A stretch of 36,148 nt of DNA from an uncultured bacterium (GTDB lineage: Bacteria > Vulcanimicrobiota > Xenobia > Xenobiales > Xenobiaceae), in NCBI GenBank assembly GCA_900313515.1, contig OMRK01000035.1, positions 1 to 36,148 of the forward strand, written 5' to 3'. The stretch's first letter is position 1; each line of letters opens with the position of its first letter. Under the pieces are notes generated by a model. The model worked only from the letters and a program-made list of their open reading frames with translations. It was not told where the DNA came from and ran no database searches. This document shows, one piece after another, positions 184 to 10,093 of this stretch. A program made the position numbers and the translations under genes.

Positions 184-996
184 TTAACGCCAAATCCACA
201 ATTCACAAAACCATGCGATAGTAAACAAAATAATCACAAAGATCAAGGCGACAATATCCCGGCCCTTAAAATTAAGCTGGCGCAGATGGCTCCTTCCTTC
301 GCCACCCCTGTAGCAACGTGCCTCCATAGCTAAGGCTAAATCATCGGCATGACGGAAAGAACTGACAAATAGCGGAATTAAAATGGGCAGAACAGCCTTG
401 AGTCTTTGTAAAACCCCACCCCGATCCAACGAAGCGCCGCGAGATAGTTGAGCTCTGGTTATATTTTCTGTCTCTTGCGCTAAAGTTGGCACAAATCTTA
501 GAGCAATAGTGGAAACCATAGCCAGTTCATGAGCAGGAAGGCCAATTCTCTTACAGGGAGCCAGCAGCTTTTCCAAGCCGTCCGTTAATAGAATGGGTGA
601 AGTAGTCAATGATAAAAGAGAAGTGAGCAGCACTAGCAAAATCAAGCGCAAGGCCATAGAGGCACCGCGCACCGTCCCTTCCAAGGTAATTTCCAACCCG
701 CCCACACAACCGATAACCTGACCTGGCACCAAAAACATATTACAGATAAGGGAGAAAAGAGCAAATATCCAGATAAAATGCAATCCCCGCAAAAGAAAAC
801 CAGCGGGAAGCTTGCAGACCATACCTACTCCTAAAAACACAACTCCCAACAGCAGAAGGACCAGAGGTTCATTTAGGCAAAAAATAGCCAGCATAGCCAC
901 AAACACGATCAAAATTTTGGTTCTAGGATCGAGTTTATGCAAAAAACTATGCCCGGGTACATACTGCCCTAAAGTAAGATTAGTTAAAATCTTAAT
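184..996 (-). CDS. ecfT: ECF transporter transmembrane component EcfT
   Basis: Motifs 'HKLDPRTK', 'IALRFVPTL', 'AQLSRG' and 'LALAMEARCY'. The ORF track starts at TTG 942, but the frame stays open upstream and encodes the conserved 'LTLGQYVPGHS'. The start is therefore placed tentatively at ATT 996 (or 990). Confidence 0.9.
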   Translation of the reverse strand: MKILTNLTLGQYVPGHSFLHKLDPRTKILIVFVAMLAIFCLNEPLVLLLLGVVFLGVGMVCKLPAGFLLRGLHFIWIFALFSLICNMFLVPGQVIGCVGGLEITLEGTVRGASMALRLILLVLLTSLLSLTTSPILLTDGLEKLLAPCKRIGLPAHELAMVSTIALRFVPTLAQETENITRAQLSRGASLDRGGVLQRLKAVLPILIPLFVSSFRHADDLALAMEARCYRGGEGRSHLRQLNFKGRDIVALIFVIILFTIAWFCELWIWR

Positions 997-1049
997 AGCG
1001 AACTTCCCTTCCTTCTTCCCAGCGCTTCACTTGGCAAACAACTCTGTAA

Positions 1050-1874
1050 TTAACAGCGTCCAAGCTCCTGACTTTTGTTATAGCAAGCCTGGGCGGCATC
1101 GATTAAAGCTACTCTGAAATTTTCCTTTTCCAACGTATACACAGCTTCAGCGGTAGTACCGCCTGGAGTAGTCACCATATAGCGCAATTCATTCAAACTT
1201 TTGCCCGTTTCCCAAGCTAAATTAACGCTGCCTCGGGCCATACCGACTGCCAGCCTCTCCGCCTGAGCTCTGGTCAATCCCAAACGAACTCCCGCATCAG
1301 TTAGCGCTTCCAGAAAAAGGTATTGATAAGCGGGACCAGAACCGGAGATAGCCGTGCCCACATCAATTAAGCGCTCCGAATCCACATAAATTTCCTCCCC
1401 TATAGCTTGCAGAATGGACCTTGCCTGCTCCAATTGCTGAGCACTCAACTCTTTATTAGCGCTCCAAACCGTGGCAGCCTGGGCGATTTGAGCGGCTAAA
1501 TTCGGCATAGCCCGCACAATCTGCTTATGTCCAAATAGCTCGCTCAACCTGGACAAACTGAATCCAGCCACAATGCTAAGTATAACCTGTTCCTTCTGTA
1601 AACAACCAGCTACCTCACTAGCAACCGCTGCAACTATATTGGGCTTAACCGCTAAAATGATAAACCTGCTGTTTAACATAGCTTCCCGACCCACGGCTGT
1701 GACATTTACCTTGTATTGGGATTCTATAAACTCACGCCTAGGCTCATAAGGTTCACAAACCATAATATTGTCAGATTTAACTGACTTGCCAGCTAGCAAA
1801 GAACGTAAAATAGATTCTCCCATTTTGCCACAGCCAATAACTGCGACTTCATATTTAAACTGAACCATCACCAA
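1050..1874 (-). CDS. proC: Pyrroline-5-carboxylate reductase
   Basis: Motifs 'IGCGKMG', 'LAVKP', 'RAMPN', 'SGSGPAY' and 'VTTPGGTT'. The true start may be ATG 1868. Confidence 0.95.
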   Translation of the reverse strand: MVMVQFKYEVAVIGCGKMGESILRSLLAGKSVKSDNIMVCEPYEPRREFIESQYKVNVTAVGREAMLNSRFIILAVKPNIVAAVASEVAGCLQKEQVILSIVAGFSLSRLSELFGHKQIVRAMPNLAAQIAQAATVWSANKELSAQQLEQARSILQAIGEEIYVDSERLIDVGTAISGSGPAYQYLFLEALTDAGVRLGLTRAQAERLAVGMARGSVNLAWETGKSLNELRYMVTTPGGTTAEAVYTLEKENFRVALIDAAQACYNKSQELGRC

Positions 1875-1937
1875 ACTCTCATCATATTTAAAATTTTATG
1901 TACACAATTATTTGAGCAGCTCCCCCCAAAGCAACAC

Positions 1938-1975
1938 AAAAAAAAAGCCCCCGATCCGGTAAAAGATCGGGGGCT
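1938..1975 (-). terminator. Intrinsic terminator of the RTX-like gene
   Basis: Minus strand reads AGCCCCCGATC-TTTTACCG-GATCGGGGGCT, a perfect 11-bp stem followed by a long T run. Confidence 0.85.
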
Positions 1976-2031
1976 ACCCTTTGACCTATGCAGCTAACTG
2001 CCCTGCATACAAGTCATTCGCTCTTCGGAGA

Positions 2032-3648
2032 CTAGAAGAGGGAGTAGGCCATGCTGGCGTAGTTGAAGCCAGGATTCTCAAACAGAGAACTGAACATACC
2101 GCTGTCGTAGTTGGGGGTGTAACTGCCGTACCCACCAATACTGCCAAAGTCAAGACCATATCCGCCGAACCCGCCAATACTACCAAAGCCACTGCCGTAT
2201 CCACCGAAACCGCCAATTCCACCGAAACCACCGAAACCGCCGGGGTACATCTGACCATACATGGAATTCATCTTGGACATAGCATCGCTGAACTCAAAGA
2301 TACCAGCGGGGACAGCCTTGAATCCATCACCATTATTCAGAGCGGAGAACACCGGCTCGCCATTCTCACCCACAACGCTGAGCTGCTCAACATCCTTCAC
2401 GGTAACGACGCTACCACCGTTGCCCTGCTTGTAGAGAACATTGCCATTACCATCAACAATGGTAATATTGTCACCGGGCTTGACCTGAGCGGTGAAGCGA
2501 TCCACACCATCGCCACCATTGACGGTCACCTTATCCTTGCCATTGCCGGTCTGGTAATACATCTTATCATTACCATCACCGCCGTTCATGTAGATCTTGT
2601 CCTTGCCGTCGCCGCCCTTGGCGATCATCACATCATCACCATCGCCACCGTACTGACGAATGTTATCGTTGCCCTTGCCACCGTCGGCCACCATAACATC
2701 GTTACCATCGCCACCGTACTGACGGATGTTATCCTTGCCAGCGCCGCCATCGGCTATCATGACATCGCTGCCCTCGCCACCACTCTGGCGAATGTAGTCG
2801 TTGCCCTTGCCACCATCGGCCACCACGTAGTCATTACCCTTGCCGCCACTCTGGCTGATATGGTCACGACCTTTACCACCATCAGCGACCAAGACATCCT
2901 GGCCACGGCCGCCAGACTCGTAGATATGGTCATTGCCCTTACCGCCATCGGCAACCAGGACATCCCTACCACGGCCACCGTACAAGTCGATATAGTCGTT
3001 ACCCTTGCCGCCATCAACGTTTATAACATCGCTGCCGCGACCACCACTGACAAACACATCGTCATCGCCGCCCTTGGCATTGATGTTGATGGTATCATCG
3101 CCGCGACCGCCCCAACGCTCTATGTTCTCACCCCAGAAGTGACCGTTCTTGGTGATATTGTCGTCGTACTTACCGCCGTCTGTGCCTCTGTTCATAACAT
3201 TCTGGAGAAGCTCTCTAAGGCCCAAACTGTTGCTGGTGGAACGGCTTCCACTATTCTGGCTCATCAGAGTGTTGAGCAACCCCATAGAACCGATGTTACC
3301 GAAGCCACCATTGTTCCCACCATAGTTCTGCAGGCTGGTGGTGCCGCCATAACGCTGCATAGTAGCGTTGGTGTAACCGTTGTTAGCCTGAGAGCGCTCA
3401 CCAATCAAGCGGCCAATCAGAGAACCGATACCAGCGCCACCTACACCACCGAGGAGGCCACCAGCGATACCACCGGTAATAGCTCCGCTGGTAGGATTGG
3501 AGAAGAGCTGCTGTATACCTTGACCTATGCCGGAACCAACCTGACTAAACATGTTCTGAAGTTGCCGCTGCTGATTCATCTGCATCTGCACGACAGACAT
3601 AGCCAAATTCTGAGAAGTACCACCCATCAAACTAGTAAGCATTTCCAT
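2032..3648 (-). CDS. Glycine-zipper + RTX-like (hemolysin-type Ca-binding) repeat protein, putatively secreted
   Basis: RBS GGAGG. N-terminal GxxxG zipper ([29 protein letters not shown]), central GGxGxD repeats and a C-terminal GGF/GGY low-complexity tail. No Sec signal peptide is visible. Confidence 0.85.
2485..3177 (-). repeat. Intragenic tandem repeat: 21 x 33 bp (11-aa GGxGxDxhxxx units) with 66-bp higher-order periodicity
   Basis: Units such as [55 protein letters not shown] and [11 protein letters not shown] read in an exact 11-residue register from 3177 to 2485. Units at the ends are degenerate. Confidence 0.9.
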
Positions 3649-3663
3649 ATCGAAACCTCCAAC

Positions 3664-3694
3664 TTCGGCCCACTAAACAAGACTGCAAGCCGAA
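3664..3694 (-). promoter_or_regulatory. Conserved 5'UTR hairpin, copy 1, directly upstream of the RBS
   Basis: Minus strand reads TTCGGC-TTGC-AGTCTTGTTTA-GTGG-GCCGAA, then GTTGGAGGTTTC. Similar to the element at 4996-5028. Confidence 0.55.
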
Positions 3695-3725
3695 AAAACT
3701 ATCTAATTTTTAACCATCGGTATAT

Positions 3726-3749
3726 TCACGTATTTTCCCGAAAAGTAAA
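3726..3749 (-). promoter_or_regulatory. Putative alternative-sigma promoter or regulator site TTTAC-N14-CGTGA (copy 1)
   Basis: TTTAC TTTTCGGGAAAATA CGTGAATA, 78 nt upstream of the ATG of 2032..3648. The same motif precedes 4564..4980. Confidence 0.55.
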
Positions 3750-3860
3750 GACTTATTAACAATCTTTCTCCGCAAAATTGTTCCCTTGCCTTGTCCCCTC
3801 CCCACGCGCCATCTTAGTCGGATCCTTTTCGTCAAAAACATAGCAGACCAATAACCATTC

Positions 3861-3884
3861 TCACGCAAACTGCTCGGCAGTAAA
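3861..3884 (-). promoter_or_regulatory. Second TTTAC-N14-CGTGA motif upstream of the RTX-like gene (copy 2)
   Basis: TTTAC TGCCGAGCAGTTTG CGTGAGAAT, with the same orientation and spacing, 135 bp upstream of copy 1. Confidence 0.45.
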
Positions 3885-3998
3885 TGTACTGATTACACAA
3901 ATAGGGGATATATTAAAGAAATTTTCAGATACAAAAAGCTATATAGAGTACGAGCTCACAAAATAAGTGATAAAGAAACATTTTAGAGGTTTGAAATT

Positions 3999-4280
3999 AT
4001 GGAAGCTAACGAAAGAGAAATGTTCTGTGAAGTTCTTTACAGTGCTCAAGAAATTGTGTTCACCTATCACGAACGCAAGTACTGTGTTCAGGGGTATACT
4101 GAGAATGGCAAGGCCCATATGTATCTTGCGCAATGGGAACCGGAATGTGGCAAACCGATTGTGTGGGAATGCACAGCAGATCTTATGGATCAGTGCGGAG
4201 AAAAATTTATCGCAGCCCCGATTTTTGAGGGCAAGACCTTTTGGAAGGTTGAACCTGAAATTACGTGGGTTGATGATTAG
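3999..4280 (+). CDS. Small acidic hypothetical protein (93 aa)
   Basis: RBS-like AGAGG before the ATG and a globular-looking sequence ('EIVFTYHERKYCVQG...FIAAPIFEGKTFWKVEPEITWVDD'). From memory it resembles small uncharacterised gut-Firmicutes proteins; not verified. Confidence 0.75.
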   Translation: MEANEREMFCEVLYSAQEIVFTYHERKYCVQGYTENGKAHMYLAQWEPECGKPIVWECTADLMDQCGEKFIAAPIFEGKTFWKVEPEITWVDD

Positions 4281-4456
4281 GTACTGCCCAAGTCCATTCT
4301 AATAACGGTTTTAAAATCTAAATATTGGACCTGGGATGAAACTTAGAACAAGAGCATCGCATTAAAACAATGCGATAGCCCCATTTATTTCAAACTAAGT
4401 TGTGAGTTGTCTCAAACCATTTTGCTGTGACTAAGTACAGTGTTGCAGGGAAAAGC

Positions 4457-4489
4457 AAAGCCGCTTGTTGCAAAACAACAGCGGCTTTT
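4457..4489. terminator. Hairpin, probable terminator between convergent genes
   Basis: AAAGCCGCT-TGTTG-CAAAA-CAACA-GCGGCTTTT, with short A and T tracts on the flanks. Confidence 0.7.
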
Positions 4490-4563
4490 CTACGTACGTA
4501 CGAGAGATAAACTTTTCAGCTTCCACCCAGCCGACGAGGCCAGGCGAAGTTACTCATATACAA

Positions 4564-4980
4564 CTAGCGAATTCCACCCATCAGCTTAGCAAAGTTAGCC
4601 CAGGACTGCTGGCTATACTGATTGTACTGATTCATAATCTGCTGAGCCTGCTTCTTCTCGCTGTGGCCACCGATAGCGCCGCCAATCAAGCGACCGATAG
4701 CACCACCGACCATACCACCGATAGGACCGCCCAGAATGGTACCGGCAACACCACCGATGAAACCGCCAGCCGCACCACCACCGGCCTTGGAGGAGAAAAC
4801 TTTCTGGACGCCATCACCGACAACGGCGCCAACACCAGCACCAGCCACGGCACCCAGAGGGCCAAAAGCAGTACCCAGAACGCCACCGATAGCAGCGCCA
4901 GCATTGCGGCCAGTGTGGGACTCTTTGATATAACCCATGGTGGAGCCCAAAGTGTTGTTATAAGTGGAAATCATACTCAT
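4564..4980 (-). CDS. Glycine-zipper protein (138 aa), no signal peptide
   Basis: RBS GGAGG. Two GxxxGxxxG hydrophobic stretches and a Gln-rich C-terminal helix. Shares a module with the N-terminus of 2032..3648. Confidence 0.85.
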   Translation of the reverse strand: MSMISTYNNTLGSTMGYIKESHTGRNAGAAIGGVLGTAFGPLGAVAGAGVGAVVGDGVQKVFSSKAGGGAAGGFIGGVAGTILGGPIGGMVGGAIGRLIGGAIGGHSEKKQAQQIMNQYNQYSQQSWANFAKLMGGIR

Positions 4981-4995
4981 CAGAAACCTCCGACC

Positions 4996-5028
4996 TCTCG
5001 GCGAACGCTTAACATCTGCGTACCGAGA
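4996..5028 (-). promoter_or_regulatory. Conserved 5'UTR hairpin, copy 2, directly upstream of the RBS
   Basis: Minus strand reads TCTCGGT-ACGC-AGATGTTAA-GCGT-TC-GCCGAGA, then GGTCGGAGGTTTC. Confidence 0.55.
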
Positions 5029-5059
5029 AACAAATTTTTCAATTTTCTATGCCCATGTA

Positions 5060-5084
5060 TCACGCAAGACAACCAAAAAGTAAA
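5060..5084 (-). promoter_or_regulatory. Putative alternative-sigma promoter or regulator site TTTAC-N15-CGTGA (copy 3)
   Basis: TTTAC TTTTTGGTTGTCTTG CGTGATAC, 80 nt upstream of the ATG of 4564..4980. Confidence 0.55.
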
Positions 5085-5408
5085 TAGCCTTTTCAAAAAA
5101 AAAATATATTTTTTATTTTATATTTCAGATCTCAAAAAAAAAGGACGTGCCCAGAGCTGCAGCTATACACACATTTAAAATTAGTCCGGCGTTTTTCTCC
5201 TACTGCTGAACTCACGCACACATAAAGTGCAGCTTGTCCTAAGAAGCAGGCAAATCAACTTGGAATAAACCCACACTGTTTTAGCGCCCCCAATAAAAAA
5301 ATGGTTAGCTTCAATGAGTTAAAAACAAGCCCAAACTACTTTAGTGGTAGCTACTTTTTAACTAAAAAAAAAATTCTGTTGATTTCGACCCCCTCTAGCT
5401 CGGCTCCA

Positions 5409-6281
5409 TTAGCACAATTCCTCTTCCAACTTTTTAAAAGCCTCTACCGATTCCGGCACAGTTAGAGGCTTGTAAATTATTTCTAATCCCAATTTCCTCT
5501 GAAGGCAAGAGAACACTCGACACAGAGGCGGTGGTTCTAATCCAGCCTCCTGCATAGCTTCGTCAGAATACAAAATCTCACGCGGTGAACCATCGGCCAC
5601 CACCCGTCCCCTATTGATTAGCAACAAACGACCACATATTTGAGCTAACTCCTCAAAATGATGCGAAACCATAATTAAAGTTATCTTTTCCGAGTTCTGT
5701 ACATCTGCCAACATCTGCAAAAGAGCTCGGGCGCCGCGTGGATCCAGTCCTGCCGTAGGCTCATCCAACACCAAGCACTTAGGGCGCATAGCCAAAACAC
5801 CCGCCAGCGCCGCCCGACGTTTCTGGCCGCCGGAAAGGGCAAAGGGAGAAACTTCCCGGCTGTTTAAACTGTTCAGACCAACTAGCTCCAGAGCCCAGTT
5901 AACCCGCTCCTCAACTTCCACTTCAGGAAGCCCCATATTGCGCGGTCCAAAAGCCACATCGGCAAAAACATTCTCTTCGAAGAGTTGCTGCTCTGGGAAT
6001 TGAAATAGCATACCAACCGAGAAGCGCACCTCGGCCAAATCAGCGCCGGACGTACCCTTGCCGATATCCACCCCGTTCACCCAAACCCTGCCCGAATCGG
6101 CCCGGAGCAACCCGTTAAAATGCTGGATCAAAGTGGACTTTCCACTTCCAGTCACACCAGAGATACCCACAGCCTCCCCATCATCAATAGAGAGAGAGAC
6201 GCCACTCAGAGCACGCCTGGCAAAAGGAGTACCCGGCATGTACGTATAGAAAACATCTTCTAATCTGATAAGTTCCGCCAT
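5409..6281 (-). CDS. ecfA2: ECF transporter ATPase EcfA2
   Basis: 'YMPGTPF' N-terminus, Walker A GVTGSGKST, 'FQFPEQQLFEE', 'SPFALSGGQKRR' and 'LDEPTAGLDP'. Confidence 0.93.
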   Translation of the reverse strand: MAELIRLEDVFYTYMPGTPFARRALSGVSLSIDDGEAVGISGVTGSGKSTLIQHFNGLLRADSGRVWVNGVDIGKGTSGADLAEVRFSVGMLFQFPEQQLFEENVFADVAFGPRNMGLPEVEVEERVNWALELVGLNSLNSREVSPFALSGGQKRRAALAGVLAMRPKCLVLDEPTAGLDPRGARALLQMLADVQNSEKITLIMVSHHFEELAQICGRLLLINRGRVVADGSPREILYSDEAMQEAGLEPPPLCRVFSCLQRKLGLEIIYKPLTVPESVEAFKKLEEELC

Positions 6282-6300
6282 TTAACGCCTGTGAGCCGGA

Positions 6301-7497
6301 CTATCCTCCGGTCATTCTACTTTTCTTGCGGCGCTTATTATAGTTTTCTGCAATTTCTTCAAAGGTCATCCAGGTGGTATCGGCCGTACGACGCCAAGAC
6401 AAGTGCTGCGCCCTTTCCAAACCGCGAGTGCGCATCTGCATACGCACATTCTCATCCTGCATGACCATATAAATGGCGTTGCGTATTTCGCTCAGATTTT
6501 TTGGATTAAACATTACGGCAGAATTACCGACTACTTCCGGCAAACTGGAAGCGTTTGAGCACACCACTGGAGTGCCCACAGCCATAGCCTCCAACACGGG
6601 AAGACCGAAACCTTCCAAAAGAGAAGGATAGGCAAACACACTGGCAGCCGCATAGAGCTTGGGTAACTCCTCGCGAGGAACATAACCCAACCAAATAATC
6701 TGCTGACTGGAATACTTACCCGCCAAATACCTCTGTTCTTCCTCGGAATAGGTTCCGGCGAAGACAAAAGGCCAATCGCAGCGCGGAGCGGTGGCCTGTA
6801 ACAAAGCTTCTACATTCTTGTTACCGAACAATCCACCCACATGTAGCACAAAGCGAGGCGGCAGCTTCCGCTGAAGCCGATACTCATCCACCTGACTTAC
6901 ATAGGGCAGAACATAATCATCAGATATTCCCAGGAGAATACTCCTAATCCCTGGCAACTGTCCCTTTATAACTGTGCGGATACTACGTTCCGTATATTGA
7001 GAATTGGTAATAATACCATCACAATCTACCAAATGTTGAGCGTAAGCCGAATGAGTCCAGCGAGTCAGATGGCGGCCCAGAAAATCGCAGTGCGGAATAA
7101 GCTCCGGATTGGTAACACTCATAAGACTGTGCACCATCACCACTCGCGGCACCCCTATATCCTCCCAGGGAAAACCGTAACGAAGATCCTGAGTACTTGG
7201 AAAATAGAACAAATCGACATTTTTCGCGATCTCTTCGTAACTCTCCTTAAGCTTAGCTCCATCGCGCTTATACCCTAAATGCTTGGCCAAAGGCCATGAG
7301 CTCTGCCTAGGCAACTCCAAAACCTTATAAGCACTAAGTAACTCTTTGTCCAGTTCTATATCCAGTTCAGGCCAAGCTATAAGATACAGTTCCCGGCGAC
7401 GCTTTAAAAATTGTATAAGCAGCTCACGGATATAGGTACTTATCCCCCTATACTGAACATCGATCTGTAAAGCCCTTATATCCAAAGCAATACGCAT
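6301..7497 (-). CDS. Glycosyltransferase, GT4 (GT-B) family
   Basis: 'MRIALD...RGISTY' N-terminus and the C-terminal signature 'YPSLLEGFGLPVLEAMAVGTPVVCSNASSLPEVVG'. Confidence 0.93.
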   Translation of the reverse strand: MRIALDIRALQIDVQYRGISTYIRELLIQFLKRRRELYLIAWPELDIELDKELLSAYKVLELPRQSSWPLAKHLGYKRDGAKLKESYEEIAKNVDLFYFPSTQDLRYGFPWEDIGVPRVVMVHSLMSVTNPELIPHCDFLGRHLTRWTHSAYAQHLVDCDGIITNSQYTERSIRTVIKGQLPGIRSILLGISDDYVLPYVSQVDEYRLQRKLPPRFVLHVGGLFGNKNVEALLQATAPRCDWPFVFAGTYSEEEQRYLAGKYSSQQIIWLGYVPREELPKLYAAASVFAYPSLLEGFGLPVLEAMAVGTPVVCSNASSLPEVVGNSAVMFNPKNLSEIRNAIYMVMQDENVRMQMRTRGLERAQHLSWRRTADTTWMTFEEIAENYNKRRKKSRMTGG

Positions 7498-7683
7498 AAA
7501 TCACATACCCCGCAGGAACAAAAAAAAACAATCTAGCTGGCCGACTTCCCCACCCACACTCGATCTCCGTTTCTTCTTGAAATGGCTTCACTATCCTATT
7601 CCTATAAAAAAAATCTATTAGCTTTACTCCTAAAAACCTTCAGTGCTAACAATAAAACACAAGATTGCTAGACTTAATTCTTG

Positions 7684-8535
7684 TTAGTGCAGCAACTCCC
7701 TAAGATTTTCGGCCAGCTTCTGCCATTGAGACTCCATAGGAAGCTTGTAACCCAATTTATTTATGGAATTTACCAACTGAGCCAATGCCGGCAATTCTAA
7801 AGCCAGCTCCCCAACAACTCTTTCATCGACAAACAATTCCTGTGGTCTCCCCTCAAAGGCAATGGCCCCATCCTTCACAGCCAAGACTCTATCTGCCTGC
7901 ATGACCTCTTCCATATGATGGGTTATATAAATAACTGCCATGCCTAATTCTTGGCGTAGGTTTTCAATAACCTCCAACACACTGCGTCGACCAGCCGAAT
8001 CTAGCATCGCCGTAGGCTCATCCATAATGAGATAACGCGGTTGCATAACCAGAACGCTGGCAATGGCCACCCTCTGAGCCTGCCCGCCAGATAAATAATG
8101 GGGTTCTCGAAAACGCAAATCTTCCAACTTGAGCATTTTCAAAGCCCAATCTATGCGCTGCCTTATTTCCGCGGGTGGAATTCCTAAATTTTCAGGTCCA
8201 AAAGCCAACTCATCCTCTATGGTTGAAGCTACCAACTGCCGAGTAGGATCTTGAAATATCAGACCCACCAACTGACGCACTCGGTACAGCTCTTCATCAT
8301 CGGCAGTATCATAACCATCAACCTTAACACTTCCGCTACTAGGCACCAATAAACCGTTCATAAGCTTAGCTATGGTGGTTTTACCGCATCCGTTAGCTCC
8401 CAAAAGACATACGAATTCTCCCGATTTAACACGGAAACTAACTCTGCGGATAATGCGGCGAGAATCATCTCGTTCTCCCGACTCCTCCTCGAATTGAGTC
8501 GGATAGGCAAAATCGACATCAGCAAGTTCTATCAC
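7684..8535 (-). CDS. ecfA1: ECF transporter ATPase EcfA1
   Basis: Walker A GANGCGKTT, 'AFGPENLG', 'EPHYLSGGQ' and 'DEPTAMLD'. Lies directly downstream of rplQ. Start moved from 8574 to GTG 8535 (MIELADVDF) because the upstream part overlaps a terminator. Confidence 0.93.
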   Translation of the reverse strand: MIELADVDFAYPTQFEEESGERDDSRRIIRRVSFRVKSGEFVCLLGANGCGKTTIAKLMNGLLVPSSGSVKVDGYDTADDEELYRVRQLVGLIFQDPTRQLVASTIEDELAFGPENLGIPPAEIRQRIDWALKMLKLEDLRFREPHYLSGGQAQRVAIASVLVMQPRYLIMDEPTAMLDSAGRRSVLEVIENLRQELGMAVIYITHHMEEVMQADRVLAVKDGAIAFEGRPQELFVDERVVGELALELPALAQLVNSINKLGYKLPMESQWQKLAENLRELLH

Positions 8536-8557
8536 AAAAAGGGCACTCCAACGGAAA

Positions 8558-8604
8558 CAAAAAAATTCCCCCATCTCCTGCCGCGGGGGCAGAAAAAAGG
8601 GGAA
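8558..8604 (-). terminator. Intrinsic terminator of the alpha operon (after rplQ)
   Basis: Minus strand reads TTCCCCTTTTTTCTGCC-CCCGC-GGCAGGAGATGGGGGAA, followed by TTTTTTT. Confidence 0.75.
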
Positions 8605-8623
8605 CCTTCACACCACTACAAAA

Positions 8624-9016
8624 CTAGCGGATCAACTGAAGGACAGCCATAGGAGCGCCATCACCCTTACGAAAACCATTGTGGATGATACGGGTATAAC
8701 CGCCGCACTTATTATCGCCATGCCGCTCAGAGAAACGGACAGCCAAGTTGTCAAAAAGATCTTGAGCCACTTCACGATCGGTGATGTGACGGAACACCCG
8801 ACGCTTGCAGGCCAACGCATCGGCGGGCTCTGCGGCGCCATGGGCCTTGCGAGCCCAAGTGATCAAGGTCTCAGTGAAACGAGCCACCTCTTTAGCGCGG
8901 GGCAGCGTAGTGACGATCTGCTCATTCCTCAACAAGGAAGTAGCCATATTTCTAAGCATTGCAATGCGGTGACCTGTCTGACGTCCTAAGGTCCGGCTGC
9001 GAACTTTGTGTCTCAT
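8624..9016 (-). CDS. rplQ: 50S ribosomal protein L17
   Basis: 'MRHK...LGRQTGHRIAMLRNMATSL...TTLPRAKE' and 'GGYTRI...RKGDGAPMA'. Confidence 0.98.
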   Translation of the reverse strand: MRHKVRSRTLGRQTGHRIAMLRNMATSLLRNEQIVTTLPRAKEVARFTETLITWARKAHGAAEPADALACKRRVFRHITDREVAQDLFDNLAVRFSERHGDNKCGGYTRIIHNGFRKGDGAPMAVLQLIR

Positions 9017-9118
9017 TGGAAAACACTCCTAATAATTATGAAAAAAAATTCTCAAAACTTAGCGGCAGAGAAATGGGGTCCTGCTACTACCAGCGCCCAC
9101 TAATGCTGGACCGGCCTA

Positions 9119-10093
9119 CTACTGCTGCGGAGAAGCCTCCGGAGTACTGGGACGCAGAGACTTGTTGCGCTGGGCCAGCTTATCTTGAATCTCAACCAAA
9201 GACTTTTGGCCGAAATTCTTCAACTTCATAAGCTGAGCTTCACTGTAGTTGAGAAGATCATCAACGTAGAGTATGCCAGCTCTCTTCAAGCAATTCAGAG
9301 AGCGCACAGACAGCTCCAGCTCCTCTATTTGAGCACTATCCCTGCCAGCAGGAGCCGGTTCCTGCTCAACAACACCATCAGCCTGATTTTGCAGACGGGC
9401 AAAAAGATCTAACCTCTCCTGCAACATCATCGCCGCTTCGGCAACTGCCTCATAAGGCTTAAGGCTGCCGTCAGTCTCCACCTCCAAGACCAAGCGATCA
9501 TAATCGGTTCTCTGCCCTACGCGGGTGTCCTGAACCTCATAATTAACTCGAATCACCGGACTGAAAATAGAATCTATGGGTATAGTGCCAATGCTCTGCT
9601 GCTCTTGACGGAACTGCTTCTCGGCCGGAACATAGCCAGTTCCCAACGAAACAGACATGTCCATGACGAAACGCGAATCATCCTCTGTCAAGGTAGCAAT
9701 CTTAAGATCCGGATTCAGAATTTCCACCTCAGGATCGGCCTCGATATCGGCAGCTGTAACTATGCCAACACCGGAAGCATCTATATGCAGAACCTTCTCC
9801 TCACCCGTATCGGTATTCATACGCATGCGGAGCTTCTTAAGGTTCAGAATAATCTCCGTGGTATCTTCCTTCACTCCGGGGATGGTAGAGAACTCGTGAA
9901 GTACCCCATCAATACGGATATGCGTAACTGCCGCACCAACCAAAGAAGAGAGCAAGACACGCCTGAGCGAATTGCCAAGAGTGATACCGTAACCACGTTC
10001 CAATGGCTCTACAATGAAACAATTCTCGCCAACCTGGCGAACTTCTGCCCTAGCCTGATCGCTTACGGCATCCATCAAGTTTGTGTCCAGCAT
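9119..10093 (-). CDS. rpoA: RNA polymerase alpha subunit
   Basis: 'EPLERGYGITLGNSLRRVLLSSL', 'HEFSTIPGVKED' and 'ELSVRSLNCLKRAGI'. Confidence 0.99.
   Translation of the reverse strand: MLDTNLMDAVSDQARAEVRQVGENCFIVEPLERGYGITLGNSLRRVLLSSLVGAAVTHIRIDGVLHEFSTIPGVKEDTTEIILNLKKLRMRMNTDTGEEKVLHIDASGVGIVTAADIEADPEVEILNPDLKIATLTEDDSRFVMDMSVSLGTGYVPAEKQFRQEQQSIGTIPIDSIFSPVIRVNYEVQDTRVGQRTDYDRLVLEVETDGSLKPYEAVAEAAMMLQERLDLFARLQNQADGVVEQEPAPAGRDSAQIEELELSVRSLNCLKRAGILYVDDLLNYSEAQLMKLKNFGQKSLVEIQDKLAQRNKSLRPSTPEASPQQ

Follow-up and report, generated by a model that had tools for sequence, protein, structure and literature searches.

How do two separate genes, divided by a gene on the opposite strand, come to share a protein module, a promoter, an RNA leader and a ribosome-binding context, and what would their glycine-rich, signal-less products do? 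The question is raised by positions 1938-5084 of contig C185 in a 2.35-Mb metagenome-assembled genome (282 contigs, 88.8% complete) of an uncultured bacterium of the Xenobiaceae. The contig was analysed over its whole length of 36,148 nt; this stretch is called the window, and positions refer to it unless another contig is named. The genes encode proteins of 538 and 138 amino acids (aa; 55 and 13 kDa), the longer one acidic and the shorter one basic. The original prediction, made from the sequence alone, took them to belong to a dedicated regulon of exported membrane-active or surface proteins whose export machinery is encoded elsewhere. Our analysis leads to a more specific reading, to which we give about an even chance: the two proteins would be late substrates of a flagellin-less, flagellum-derived type III secretion system (T3SS) and would insert into membranes.

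Are the two proteins homologous at all? Pairwise comparison does not say so: BLASTP of the 538-aa against the 138-aa protein was not significant (E = 5.7), and a six-frame search reached E = 0.011. Proteins so rich in glycine make pairwise BLASTP insensitive. A profile of 17 family members, searched genome-wide, matches both window genes (E = 7.1e-41, and 3.4e-13 for the 538-aa gene, where the match spans 3298-3549). Because the profile finds both, the homology is real and the genes are paralogues; the shared protein module of the original prediction is thereby borne out. An apparent third paralogue in the same genome, on C103 (E = 1e-4), was rejected as an antisense frame of a PT-rich repeat. 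The gene concerned (C103:2856-6131, ORF 801-1940, minus strand) encodes a leucine-rich-repeat lipoprotein with a long (EPT)n linker, and it is the antisense frame of this linker that mimics a glycine zipper.

In nine genomes of the same genus, ecfA and proC flank three or four paralogues, all on one strand, of about 250, 165, 270 and 480-560 aa. Their alignment reveals a common layout: a polar N-terminus of 20-45 residues, a first zipper, an invariant loop (..KVFS[ST]..GG..), a second zipper with a central GP, an [SN]E[QK] box and a stretch rich in Q, N and M. The tail beyond is absent, rich in S, G and N, or a repeat domain followed by a conserved beta cap (..AVPAGLFE..). The species of the window retains only one short and one long form, and its long form has lost the first zipper, which most relatives carry in the family alignments and which is also missing from the paralogues of the relative G005. 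F62, S63 and eight glycines of the 138-aa protein are invariant in the alignment. Orthologues of this protein have 155-165 aa; those of the 538-aa protein, found in six relatives, have 474-561 aa and are 39-47% identical. Identity between paralogues is about 27-48%.

How widespread is the family? Its profile matches 27 of 151 sampled genomes of the phylum and, among 1.84 billion representative sequences, 28 at E ≤ 1e-10, only a handful of them from profile position 1. The zipper core alone is widespread (1765 representatives at E ≤ 0.001). The relatives are titled Candidatus Bruticola sp., bacterium UBP9_UBA4705, Candidatus Eremiobacteraeota and Vulcanimicrobiota and come from human, goat-rumen and other gut samples; the window stretch itself is present in bovine and sheep gut sequencing runs. 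On the sequences available the family appears narrow, tandemly duplicated and specific to a lineage of gut and rumen Xenobia-type Eremiobacterota, with the window genes as surviving members. The 138-aa protein matches Pfam PF13488 (Gly-zipper_Omp) at 27.5 bits, the cut-off being 25, with sub-threshold matches to DUF1269, DUF456 and YMGG. The 538-aa protein has no Pfam match and is tied in only through the family profile. A sequence search of the PDB with the glycine-zipper profile returned only a crAss-phage cargo protein, a tape-measure protein and prion protein, all via the zipper, and a search of the ESM Atlas with the 138-aa protein peaked at 0.83, which is noise level. Neither window protein belongs, by these searches, to a well-characterised family whose export route is known; their own family matches are to the generic PF13488 domain and to the weak calcium repeats described below.

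The likeness extends beyond the proteins. Upstream of both genes stand TTTACTTTT[C/T]GG, 7-8 nt, CGTGA[A/T]A, an A/T-rich stretch, a stem-loop and GGAGGTTTC, the last of these 4-5 nt before the ATG; the end of CGTGA lies 78 and 80 nt from the two start codons, as had been read from the sequence. The short motif TTTAC-N14/15-CGTGA has 12 matches in the genome, 3 of them at this locus. A longer form, TTTACT.TT.GG.{6,12}GTGA[AT], has three (none in a reversed control): the 538-aa gene, the 138-aa gene and a gene for an 87-aa protein on contig C198, the member of a second, small family that is taken up below. The scan of genome and relatives called for by the original prediction thus reached a gene beyond the locus, and it also found the signature upstream of orthologues and paralogues in relatives, where TT[TA]ACT, 16-17 nt and a GATAA[AT]-type box precede 31 of 38 glycine-zipper family genes and 10 of 11 small-family genes examined. 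In the promoters here the -35 element reads TTTACT, and the -10 element begins with G and has GATAA as its core. Sigma-28 (FliA) promoters are of the type TAAA-N15-GCCGATAA; the strict consensus was sought and not found, a CCGATAAT box standing before one G005 copy only. Weaker matches to the weight matrix built for the motif (17.1 at C105:17715, minus strand; 16.2 at C237:5764, plus strand) precede open reading frames (ORFs) with polar N-termini (MDIMSQLNVGQAM.. and MNDITSKYVNDTL..), which could be further members of the set.

The leader hairpin is present in both genes (Table 1). Among distinct family leaders, 31 of 35 have a simple hairpin near the Shine-Dalgarno (SD) sequence, as have 252 of 548 other SD leaders of the same genome; the family leaders are kin and not independent, so the comparison is indicative only. 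(A leader was counted when the 48 nt before its SD folded, at minimum free energy, into one hairpin only, with 6 or more pairs and an end 1-7 nt from the SD.) The stems keep their place while their sequence changes: TTTCGG..CCGAAA, TTTCGAT..ATCGAAA, TTTTGG..CCGAAA, TCTCGG..CCGAGA, GGGCC..GGCCC and TCTAAGC..GCTTAGA, compensatory changes that were read by eye. From 37 leaders aligned with MAFFT, RNAalifold derived no consensus pair, the alignment putting the stems out of register; two of the 39 leaders (L006:1972-2036 and L022:1702-1766) had been dropped before alignment as mis-called starts. Rfam at its gathering threshold gave no match in the whole window. The ribosome-binding context is identical before both genes, and the 9-mer occurs 24 times in the genome. 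At the 3' side the extra hairpin described in the original prediction does precede the terminator of both window genes; it is not a family trait, because in G001 the downstream spacers of three paralogues were read and the hairpin stands in one. The terminator scan misses the terminator-like hairpin of the 138-aa unit, in which the T run is too short. The account of two separate units, each with its own terminator and with an opposite-strand gene between them, is correct in all its coordinates. Each copy is its own transcription unit, made up of a putative sigma-70-family promoter, an A/U-rich leader, a stem-loop by a perfect SD and a terminator, and this layout suits an abundant, stable mRNA.

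Are these units transcribed? Six RNA-library runs contain 0.67-0.72 of the words of 1938-5084, and contigs were mapped from four RNA runs (X15, X16, X17 and X20) of four studies. Both genes are covered in all four, each gene separately, and no contig of the four runs bridges them; the two genes thus occur together in RNA, as co-expression would have it. Contigs over the 538-aa gene have lower ends at 1978, 1979, 2025 and 2047 and upper ends at 3614, 3638, 3699 and 3780; those over the 138-aa gene have lower ends at 4481-4501 and an upper end at 5035 in three runs (X15, X17, X20) and at 5020 in X16. The contigs run on into adapter sequence at 5035 in two runs, at 5020 and at 3699 (X20). From 5035 and from 3699 it is 3 nt to the predicted leader stem, and the first T of TTTACT stands 50-51 nt upstream. 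All three positions, a weak hint of RNA 5' ends, fall 13-15 nt downstream of the start expected from the TTTACT/-10 geometry, a shift for which processing and library truncation are indistinguishable. Stem-loops close to the 5' end stabilise mRNAs (ompA-type leaders), and the two ends next to the stems weakly suggest a 5'-proximal stem-loop of this kind. Contigs cannot prove RNA ends and their depth cannot rank genes; the stretches left uncovered in the four runs (1400-1975, 3781-4480 except for 4164-4321 in X17, and 5036-5700) are no finding. Only RNA runs were used in this comparison. The 538-aa gene has the motif twice, the distal copy being 135 nt farther upstream than the proximal one; the contig that extends to 3780 is from X15.

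What is the third gene with the long motif? Its product belongs to a family of 77-91 aa with the motif ..RWxILxDTQTKIxEIQQ..KWDEYIRG. A 79-aa member is encoded directly downstream of flhA in G005, and among the matches listed 25 of 41 relatives have a copy no more than 6 kb from a full-length flhA of the same contig; the flhA that adjoins a small-family copy in G029 and the flagellin-linked flhA of that genome are on different contigs. There are 3-8 matches per genus genome, the family is present in 52 of the 151 phylum genomes, and copies across the genus are 57-72% identical to the C198 copy. Searches of Pfam, NCBIfam and the PDB found no relative (PDB: 0 matches at E ≤ 10). The C198 copy is preceded by TTTACTCTTTGG..GAGTGATAAT, the top weight-matrix score of the genome (24.0; best reversed-control score 21.2). 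Larger neighbours (295 aa at C42:4190-5077 in the same genome; 237 and 244 aa in G005) carry the C-terminal half of the small family. A near-match of the motif, TTTACTTTATGG..GGTGATAA at C161:14727-14757 (plus strand), lies about 250 nt before an ORF starting ..LDAIRTGTLASFCSS, whose G005 orthologue adjoins a flgB-like T3SS gene.

The small family and the glycine-zipper family also resemble each other at the start of the protein. The first ten residues of the 538-aa protein are identical to those of the C198 protein, and this decapeptide begins 2 of 17,149 ATG-started open stretches, the next best agreeing at 6 of 10 positions. The first 12 codons of the two genes differ by four synonymous changes and one replacement, and because of this ratio we take the N-terminal peptide to be under selection and not the product of recent conversion. 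Comparable pairs occur in other genomes: MGALTTAASIAQM / MGALSTAASVAQV in G001 and MGLSNAASMAQMAASDFQNAQTIY / MGLSNAAAMAQMAAMDYQNAQAIY in G005. The best ungapped 12-residue identity within a genome is 11, 10 and 11 in G000, G001 and G005, 6 in G003 and ≤3 in five others; between genomes most values are 1-6, and five pairs reach 7-9, of which four lie within the group of close relatives formed by G001, G003 and G006. A profile of 47 N-terminal columns of the small family was run against 12,559 open frames of the genome and 43 glycine-zipper proteins of relatives. It found the two own small-family genes and 7 of the 43 glycine-zipper proteins (E = 3.6e-10 to 1.5e-7), with two more at 0.03-0.08; none of the 12,559 background frames fell below E = 1. 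Long forms of G001, G003, G006, G007 and G009 carry the small-family motif close to their C-terminal end; it is N-terminal in G005, where a whole-genome search also finds it in glycine-zipper proteins (E = 2.5e-5 and 5.3e-5). The idea that the common N-terminus is a double-glycine leader was dropped: it is too short, and the N-termini of other genomes have no GG.

How might such proteins leave the cell? By inspection, which agrees with the original prediction, neither protein has a Sec or lipoprotein signal; the N-termini are polar and both proteins are Cys-free, which leaves no lipobox. The genome does encode a T3SS export apparatus, with FlhA split over C195 and C88 and with FlhB, FliR and FliP on C195. 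FlgF/G-like rod proteins adjoin FliA (C170:9653-10537), which is above its curated cut-off (201.5 bits; cut-off 189.6), and there are two secretins in the genome. The corresponding cluster of G005 (C1:200000-239999; L158/L159) contains, by Pfam, FliF, fliK-like, flgE/F/G-like and FliO genes, with a flgB-like gene nearby; the ORFs in between were read as fliG-H-I-J, fliM-N-N and fliP-Q-R-flhB-flhA solely from their order, their size and their N-terminal sequences. All 41 relatives of the class have a full-length FlhA, and flagellin-bearing genomes have a second one. In the 19 genomes of the taxonomic family neither Flagellin_N nor FliD was detected, though 8 of the 41 class relatives are positive for the former, and a MotB plug was found in 2 of the 19 and in 0 of 10 genomes of the genus. 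Judging from this gene content, the lineage retains a flagellar-type basal body and export gate, with filament, cap and stator not detectable. A soluble paralogue with only the C-terminal FlhA domain is encoded at C36:799-2316 (plus strand); such paralogues are numerous in larger relatives, with up to 19 FHIPEP matches in G022.

The long form carries a further domain, overlooked in the original prediction. Two fifths of the 538-aa protein consist of 18 repeats GGxGxDxhxhx, spaced by exactly 11 residues. In an AlphaFold2 (AF2) model built from seven sequences the block-mean pLDDT is 55-61 at residues 161-180, 81-98 at 181-460 and <50 elsewhere. Foldseek found nothing in the PDB at E ≤ 0.001 for the modelled solenoid; its best rows were the calcium-dependent beta-helical antifreeze protein 3p4g (E = 0.012, probability 0.99), the RTX blocks of lipase and CyaA, and an Aeromonas RTX-like domain. 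Proteins related in sequence to the repeat region carry PF00353 and are named calcium-binding RTX-like; PF00353 itself has no match in the 538-aa protein at E ≤ 1, and the NCBIfam calcium-repeat model SMc04171 matches weakly (30.8 vs 625 bits). The repeat thus appears, by sequence, to be related to RTX as a variant of it, and the model suggests that the long form carries an RTX-like beta-solenoid that may bind calcium. The repeat region is also joined to PF18998 in seven proteins of 811-850 aa (P0001-P0007), which align with 37-66% of the 538-aa query at 34-43% identity, and so the 11-residue solenoid occurs on other carriers. The AF2 model of the 138-aa protein is all-helical and of low confidence (pLDDT 50.8) and was left out of the fold search.

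Taken as T3SS cargo, the glycine-zipper proteins would be made together with the ~80-aa, pilus-like subunits encoded beside flhA, would be recognised by the T3SS through the N-terminal segment in common with the small family, and would be exported unfolded. They would then insert or oligomerise in a membrane through their zippers, and the beta-solenoid of the long form would fold extracellularly. The promoter and N-terminal peptide would act as a cassette, common to the small subunit and the glycine-zipper proteins and kept alike within a genome, as would be expected if both families are made at the same stage and either handed to one export gate or assembled together. RTX domains stay unfolded inside the cell and fold outside with extracellular calcium, and a solenoid that behaves analogously would be compatible with passage through a narrow channel. 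The reading has a partial parallel in EspZ of enteropathogenic Escherichia coli, a T3SS effector described (PMC13689184) as spanning the membrane with two segments and carrying a glycine zipper. There an N-terminal stretch is needed for T3SS export, the two membrane segments are of about 23 residues with a loop of 8-10 residues, and GxxxGxxxG drives self-association. Its small signal-less layout is that of the 138-165-aa short forms, with a looser likeness to hydrophobic T3SS translocators. EspZ differs in having no sequence similarity to the window proteins, whose zippers are of 30-40 residues with a central GP turn and whose genes belong to a multi-paralogue, housekeeping-linked cluster with one form that bears a beta-solenoid; the predicted T3SS here is flagellar-type and not an injectisome.

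Several points weigh against export by the T3SS. In the loci read the glycine-zipper cluster never adjoins T3SS genes, and no chaperone gene was found beside it. Neither window protein matches the N-terminal profile of the small family, and the 138-aa protein is linked to it by family membership and a weak MSMIST/MSILSS resemblance. Of 9 genomes compared, only 3 clearly contain near-identical N-termini, and some start codons are uncertain. A weight-matrix scan above 14 bits gave 113 matches, vs 101 in the reversed genome; the matrix is unspecific genome-wide, and a regulon cannot be delimited with it. Of the dedicated regulon originally proposed, then, the conservation of motif and leader in relatives and the third gene in the same genome stand, which takes the putative regulon to three or four genes. 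The geometry of the common motif fits a housekeeping sigma factor just as well as FliA. Glycine-zipper and small families occur together in 26 of 27 genomes with the former (the exception is a match with three in-frame stops), but these genomes are kin, not independent, and the co-occurrence proves little. The pilus-like character of the small family comes in part from the ESM Atlas, where the own small protein scored 0.92 with an unnamed cluster, 0.91 with clusters that have 23-24% HrpA_pilin members (175 and 173 shared features) and 0.88 with an HrpE-like one; such scores are leads only, shuffled proteins reaching 0.9 in 4-10 of 100 cases. The likeness to HrpA/HrpE pilus subunits otherwise lies in size (63-90 aa in the Atlas clusters), all-helical prediction and genes beside T3SS export genes; the differences are that the small family is multi-copy and has no profile match, and that the apparatus has flagellar FliF/G/M/N/K and rod proteins. 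GGxGxD beta-rolls are classically cargo of type I secretion systems (T1SS). Finally, export of the two proteins, its route, membrane insertion and calcium binding are all inferred.

Could the proteins simply stay in the cell? They might be abundant inner-membrane or membrane-associated proteins, comparable to small stress-type zipper proteins, whose zippers insert from the cytoplasm as re-entrant hairpins; on this view promoter and N-terminus would resemble those of the small family through gene conversion or shared ancestry of 5' modules and nothing more. This is the main rival, and we think it fairly unlikely. The lack of a signal peptide and the moderate hydrophobicity of the zippers fit it (Kyte-Doolittle maxima of 1.46-1.49 across both proteins, the best 19-residue mean of the 138-aa protein being 1.46), as do the Pfam matches, which are to generic membrane zippers, and the place of the cluster amid housekeeping genes. 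The variation of zipper number among orthologues would also be easier to accommodate if each zipper were a hairpin that leaves the topology unchanged. A calcium-type GGxGxD solenoid of 280 residues, however, is unexpected in the cytoplasm, the codon differences in the common N-terminus point to selection on the peptide, and the small family that the proteins resemble is the one tied to flhA. SlyB/Pcp-type zipper proteins (PF13488, PF05433) are outer-membrane lipoproteins with a signal peptide and a lipobox; the 138-aa protein resembles them in its zipper core, and the window proteins, free of Cys and by inspection of signal peptides, differ from them in this and in the polar N-terminal module and Q/N-rich tail specific to their own family. 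More doubtful still is the idea that everything in common between the two genes is a relic of tandem duplication, with no regulation or function in common beyond descent. The genes are paralogous, and promoter, leader, coding sequence and terminator were clearly duplicated together as whole units; yet the -35 and -10 blocks and the leader hairpin persist across genera despite the low identity of the paralogues, the hairpin holds its place while its stem sequence changes, and the motif also precedes the unrelated coding sequence of the small family. We regard this explanation as very improbable.

Export by another route is the remaining alternative: the long form at least could be a T1SS substrate, an RTX-like surface protein or Cdz-like bacteriocin, with its ABC exporter, membrane-fusion protein and TolC encoded elsewhere. 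The 538-aa protein has much that such cargo has, being acidic and Cys-free, with GGxGxD turns, a parallel beta-roll-like model, repeats followed by a C-terminal extension, and relatives annotated as calcium-binding RTX-like with PF00353. It departs from RTX proteins in its period (11 residues in 18 repeats, not the nonapeptide GGxGxDxUx), in the missing PF00353 match and in having a glycine zipper as its N-terminal domain. Three TolC-type genes are present in the genome, but their partners are a MacB-type permease and RND pumps, and in the 88.8%-complete genome no HlyB/PrtD-type exporter or HlyD-type adaptor lies above its cut-off (best HlyB-type match 378.8 vs 725.55 bits; best HlyD-type 96.3 vs 208.65 bits). 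The short paralogues are without repeats, and C-termini are not conserved among orthologues. A signal-less zipper pair exported by a T1SS is known from Caulobacter, where CdzC and CdzD (PMC5380434) are contact-dependent bacteriocins that aggregate on the surface and are membrane-active, 84-86 aa long (5-10 kDa) and encoded with the T1SS genes cdzAB and a membrane immunity gene. The window genes likewise encode signal-less glycine-zipper proteins in a pair. Their products differ in size, their neighbours are ecfA, proC and a 93-aa orphan, no T1SS gene such as cdzAB and no membrane immunity gene adjoins the cluster in any locus read, and the locus is syntenic and vertically conserved rather than island-like. 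We rank this alternative after retention in the cell and consider it improbable. As for the proposal that export machinery is encoded elsewhere, then, a T1SS of the HlyB/HlyD type finds no support above cut-off, and a flagellin-less flagellar-type T3SS with a linked small family is the candidate.

Table 1. Features of the two glycine-zipper units, the sequences between them and related regions on other contigs (positions without a contig name are those of the window)
Feature	Position	Strand	Basis or value
Gene for 538-aa long-form glycine-zipper protein	2032..3648	-	ORF list; pI 4.59, 0 Cys, 23.6% Gly
Gene for 138-aa short-form glycine-zipper protein	4564..4980	-	ORF list; pI 10.0, 0 Cys, 25.4% Gly
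Promoter-like motif TTTACTTTTCGG..ACGTGAATATA of 538-aa gene	3721..3749	-	motif scans
Second, distal motif copy TTTACT-N13-GCGTGAGAAT upstream of 538-aa gene	3857..3884	-	weight-matrix score 16.5
Promoter-like motif TTTACTTTTTGG..GCGTGATACAT of 138-aa gene	5055..5084	-	motif scans; weight-matrix score 21.2, genome rank 6
Predicted leader stem-loop, 538-aa mRNA	3664..3696	-	RNAfold -12.8 kcal/mol, z -2.64; 3 nt before GGAGG
Predicted leader stem-loop, 138-aa mRNA	4995..5032	-	RNAfold -15.7 kcal/mol, z -2.54; 3 nt before GGAGG
SD context GGAGGTTTC, 538-aa gene	3652..3660	-	sequence
SD context GGAGGTTTC, 138-aa gene	4983..4991	-	sequence
Codons of the N-terminal decapeptide common to the 538-aa and the 87-aa C198 proteins	3619..3648	-	10/10 identity
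Single glycine-zipper module of 538-aa protein (residues 36-88)	3385..3543	-	family alignments
Predicted beta-solenoid and capping beta domain of 538-aa protein (residues 163-446)	2311..3162	-	AF2 model
18 in-register 11-residue GGxGxD repeats (residues 180-388)	2485-3111	-	composition analysis
Low-complexity G/F/Y-rich tail of 538-aa protein (residues 467-538)	2035..2250	-	composition; pLDDT <50
3' end of 538-aa unit: extra hairpin 1987-2009, then intrinsic terminator 1946-1975 with T run	1946..2009	-	terminator scan: 12 pairs, 8 GC
Two glycine-zipper segments and invariant ..KVFSS.. loop of 138-aa protein (residues 26-111)	4648..4905	-	family alignment
3' end of 138-aa unit: imperfect hairpin 4520-4549, then terminator-like hairpin 4460-4485 (element 4448-4489), tail TTTGCTTTT	4448..4549	-	sequence
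Orphan 93-aa ORF between the two genes	3999..4280	+	ORF list
Own small-family copy (87 aa)	C198:5334-5597	-	family 77-91 aa
Own small-family copy	C42:3587-3832	+	family 77-91 aa
T3SS gene regions of the genome	C195:1-4957, C88:3105-3806, C170:7259-10537		profile matches and gene order

The minus strand of the window carries a partial truA, ecfT, proC (1050-1874), the 538-aa and 138-aa ORFs, ecfA (5409-6281), a glycosyltransferase gene, a second ecfA and rplQ. The G/F/Y-rich tail of the 538-aa protein varies among orthologues and shows no conservation in the alignment. The orphan ORF between the genes has five Cys and looks soluble; it has no Pfam or NCBIfam match, is missing from the G001 cluster, was not found in the clusters of relatives, and has only 2 homologous clusters among 5.8 billion proteins. 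A 158-nt RNA contig (4164-4321, run X17) overlaps its 3' end. In three distant genomes (G021, G044 and G109) the loci of glycine-zipper genes hold no T3SS gene nearby, and proteins of about 560 aa with a zinc ribbon, and TPR-HD proteins, adjoin instead. In G044 (C68:25000-43000, positions 6500-9378 of that locus) and G021 (C7:58000-77000, positions 5868-7568) the gene adjoining the glycine-zipper gene encodes such a ~560-aa protein with a central zinc ribbon, and a GPEHxQxY motif is common to both. T3SS-linked genes, too, have a zinc-ribbon ORF in their neighbourhood, in G005 (L158:14854-15393) and in the genome of the window (C271:1169-1672).

The literature searched, subscription journals aside, holds no description of the glycine-zipper family or of a flagellin-less apparatus in Eremiobacterota or Xenobia. 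Papers that name both Eremiobacterota and type III secretion have neither term in title or abstract; among the matches listed, none on flagellar T3SS without flagellin concerns the phylum Eremiobacterota, and none that names Eremiobacterota or Xenobia concerns secretion. A wider scheme can be drawn from our data, and we offer it tentatively, as a possibility we would not yet bet on. A basal body without flagellin, cap and stators would have been repurposed as a secretion organelle that polymerises Hrp-pilus-like subunits of about 80 aa and exports the glycine-zipper set, one member of which is fused to a new 11-residue calcium-type solenoid. Cargo and subunit alike would be directed to it by an exchangeable 5' cassette of promoter and N-terminal peptide, evolving in concert inside each genome, and the system would form a third functional T3SS lineage beside flagella and injectisomes, with translocon-like cargo.

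Even on a conservative view the locus defines a compact expression cassette, made up of promoter, stem-loop near the RNA contig ends, perfect SD and terminator, and a narrow protein family that is present in rumen RNA libraries of four studies. If the T3SS reading is true, a flagellum-derived secretion system not described before, in an animal-gut phylum about which little is known, would have its first candidate cargo in the two proteins. The cassettes of promoter and signal would then offer a testable case in which T3SS substrates are recruited by reassortment, and the 11-residue variant would join the repertoire of calcium beta-rolls.

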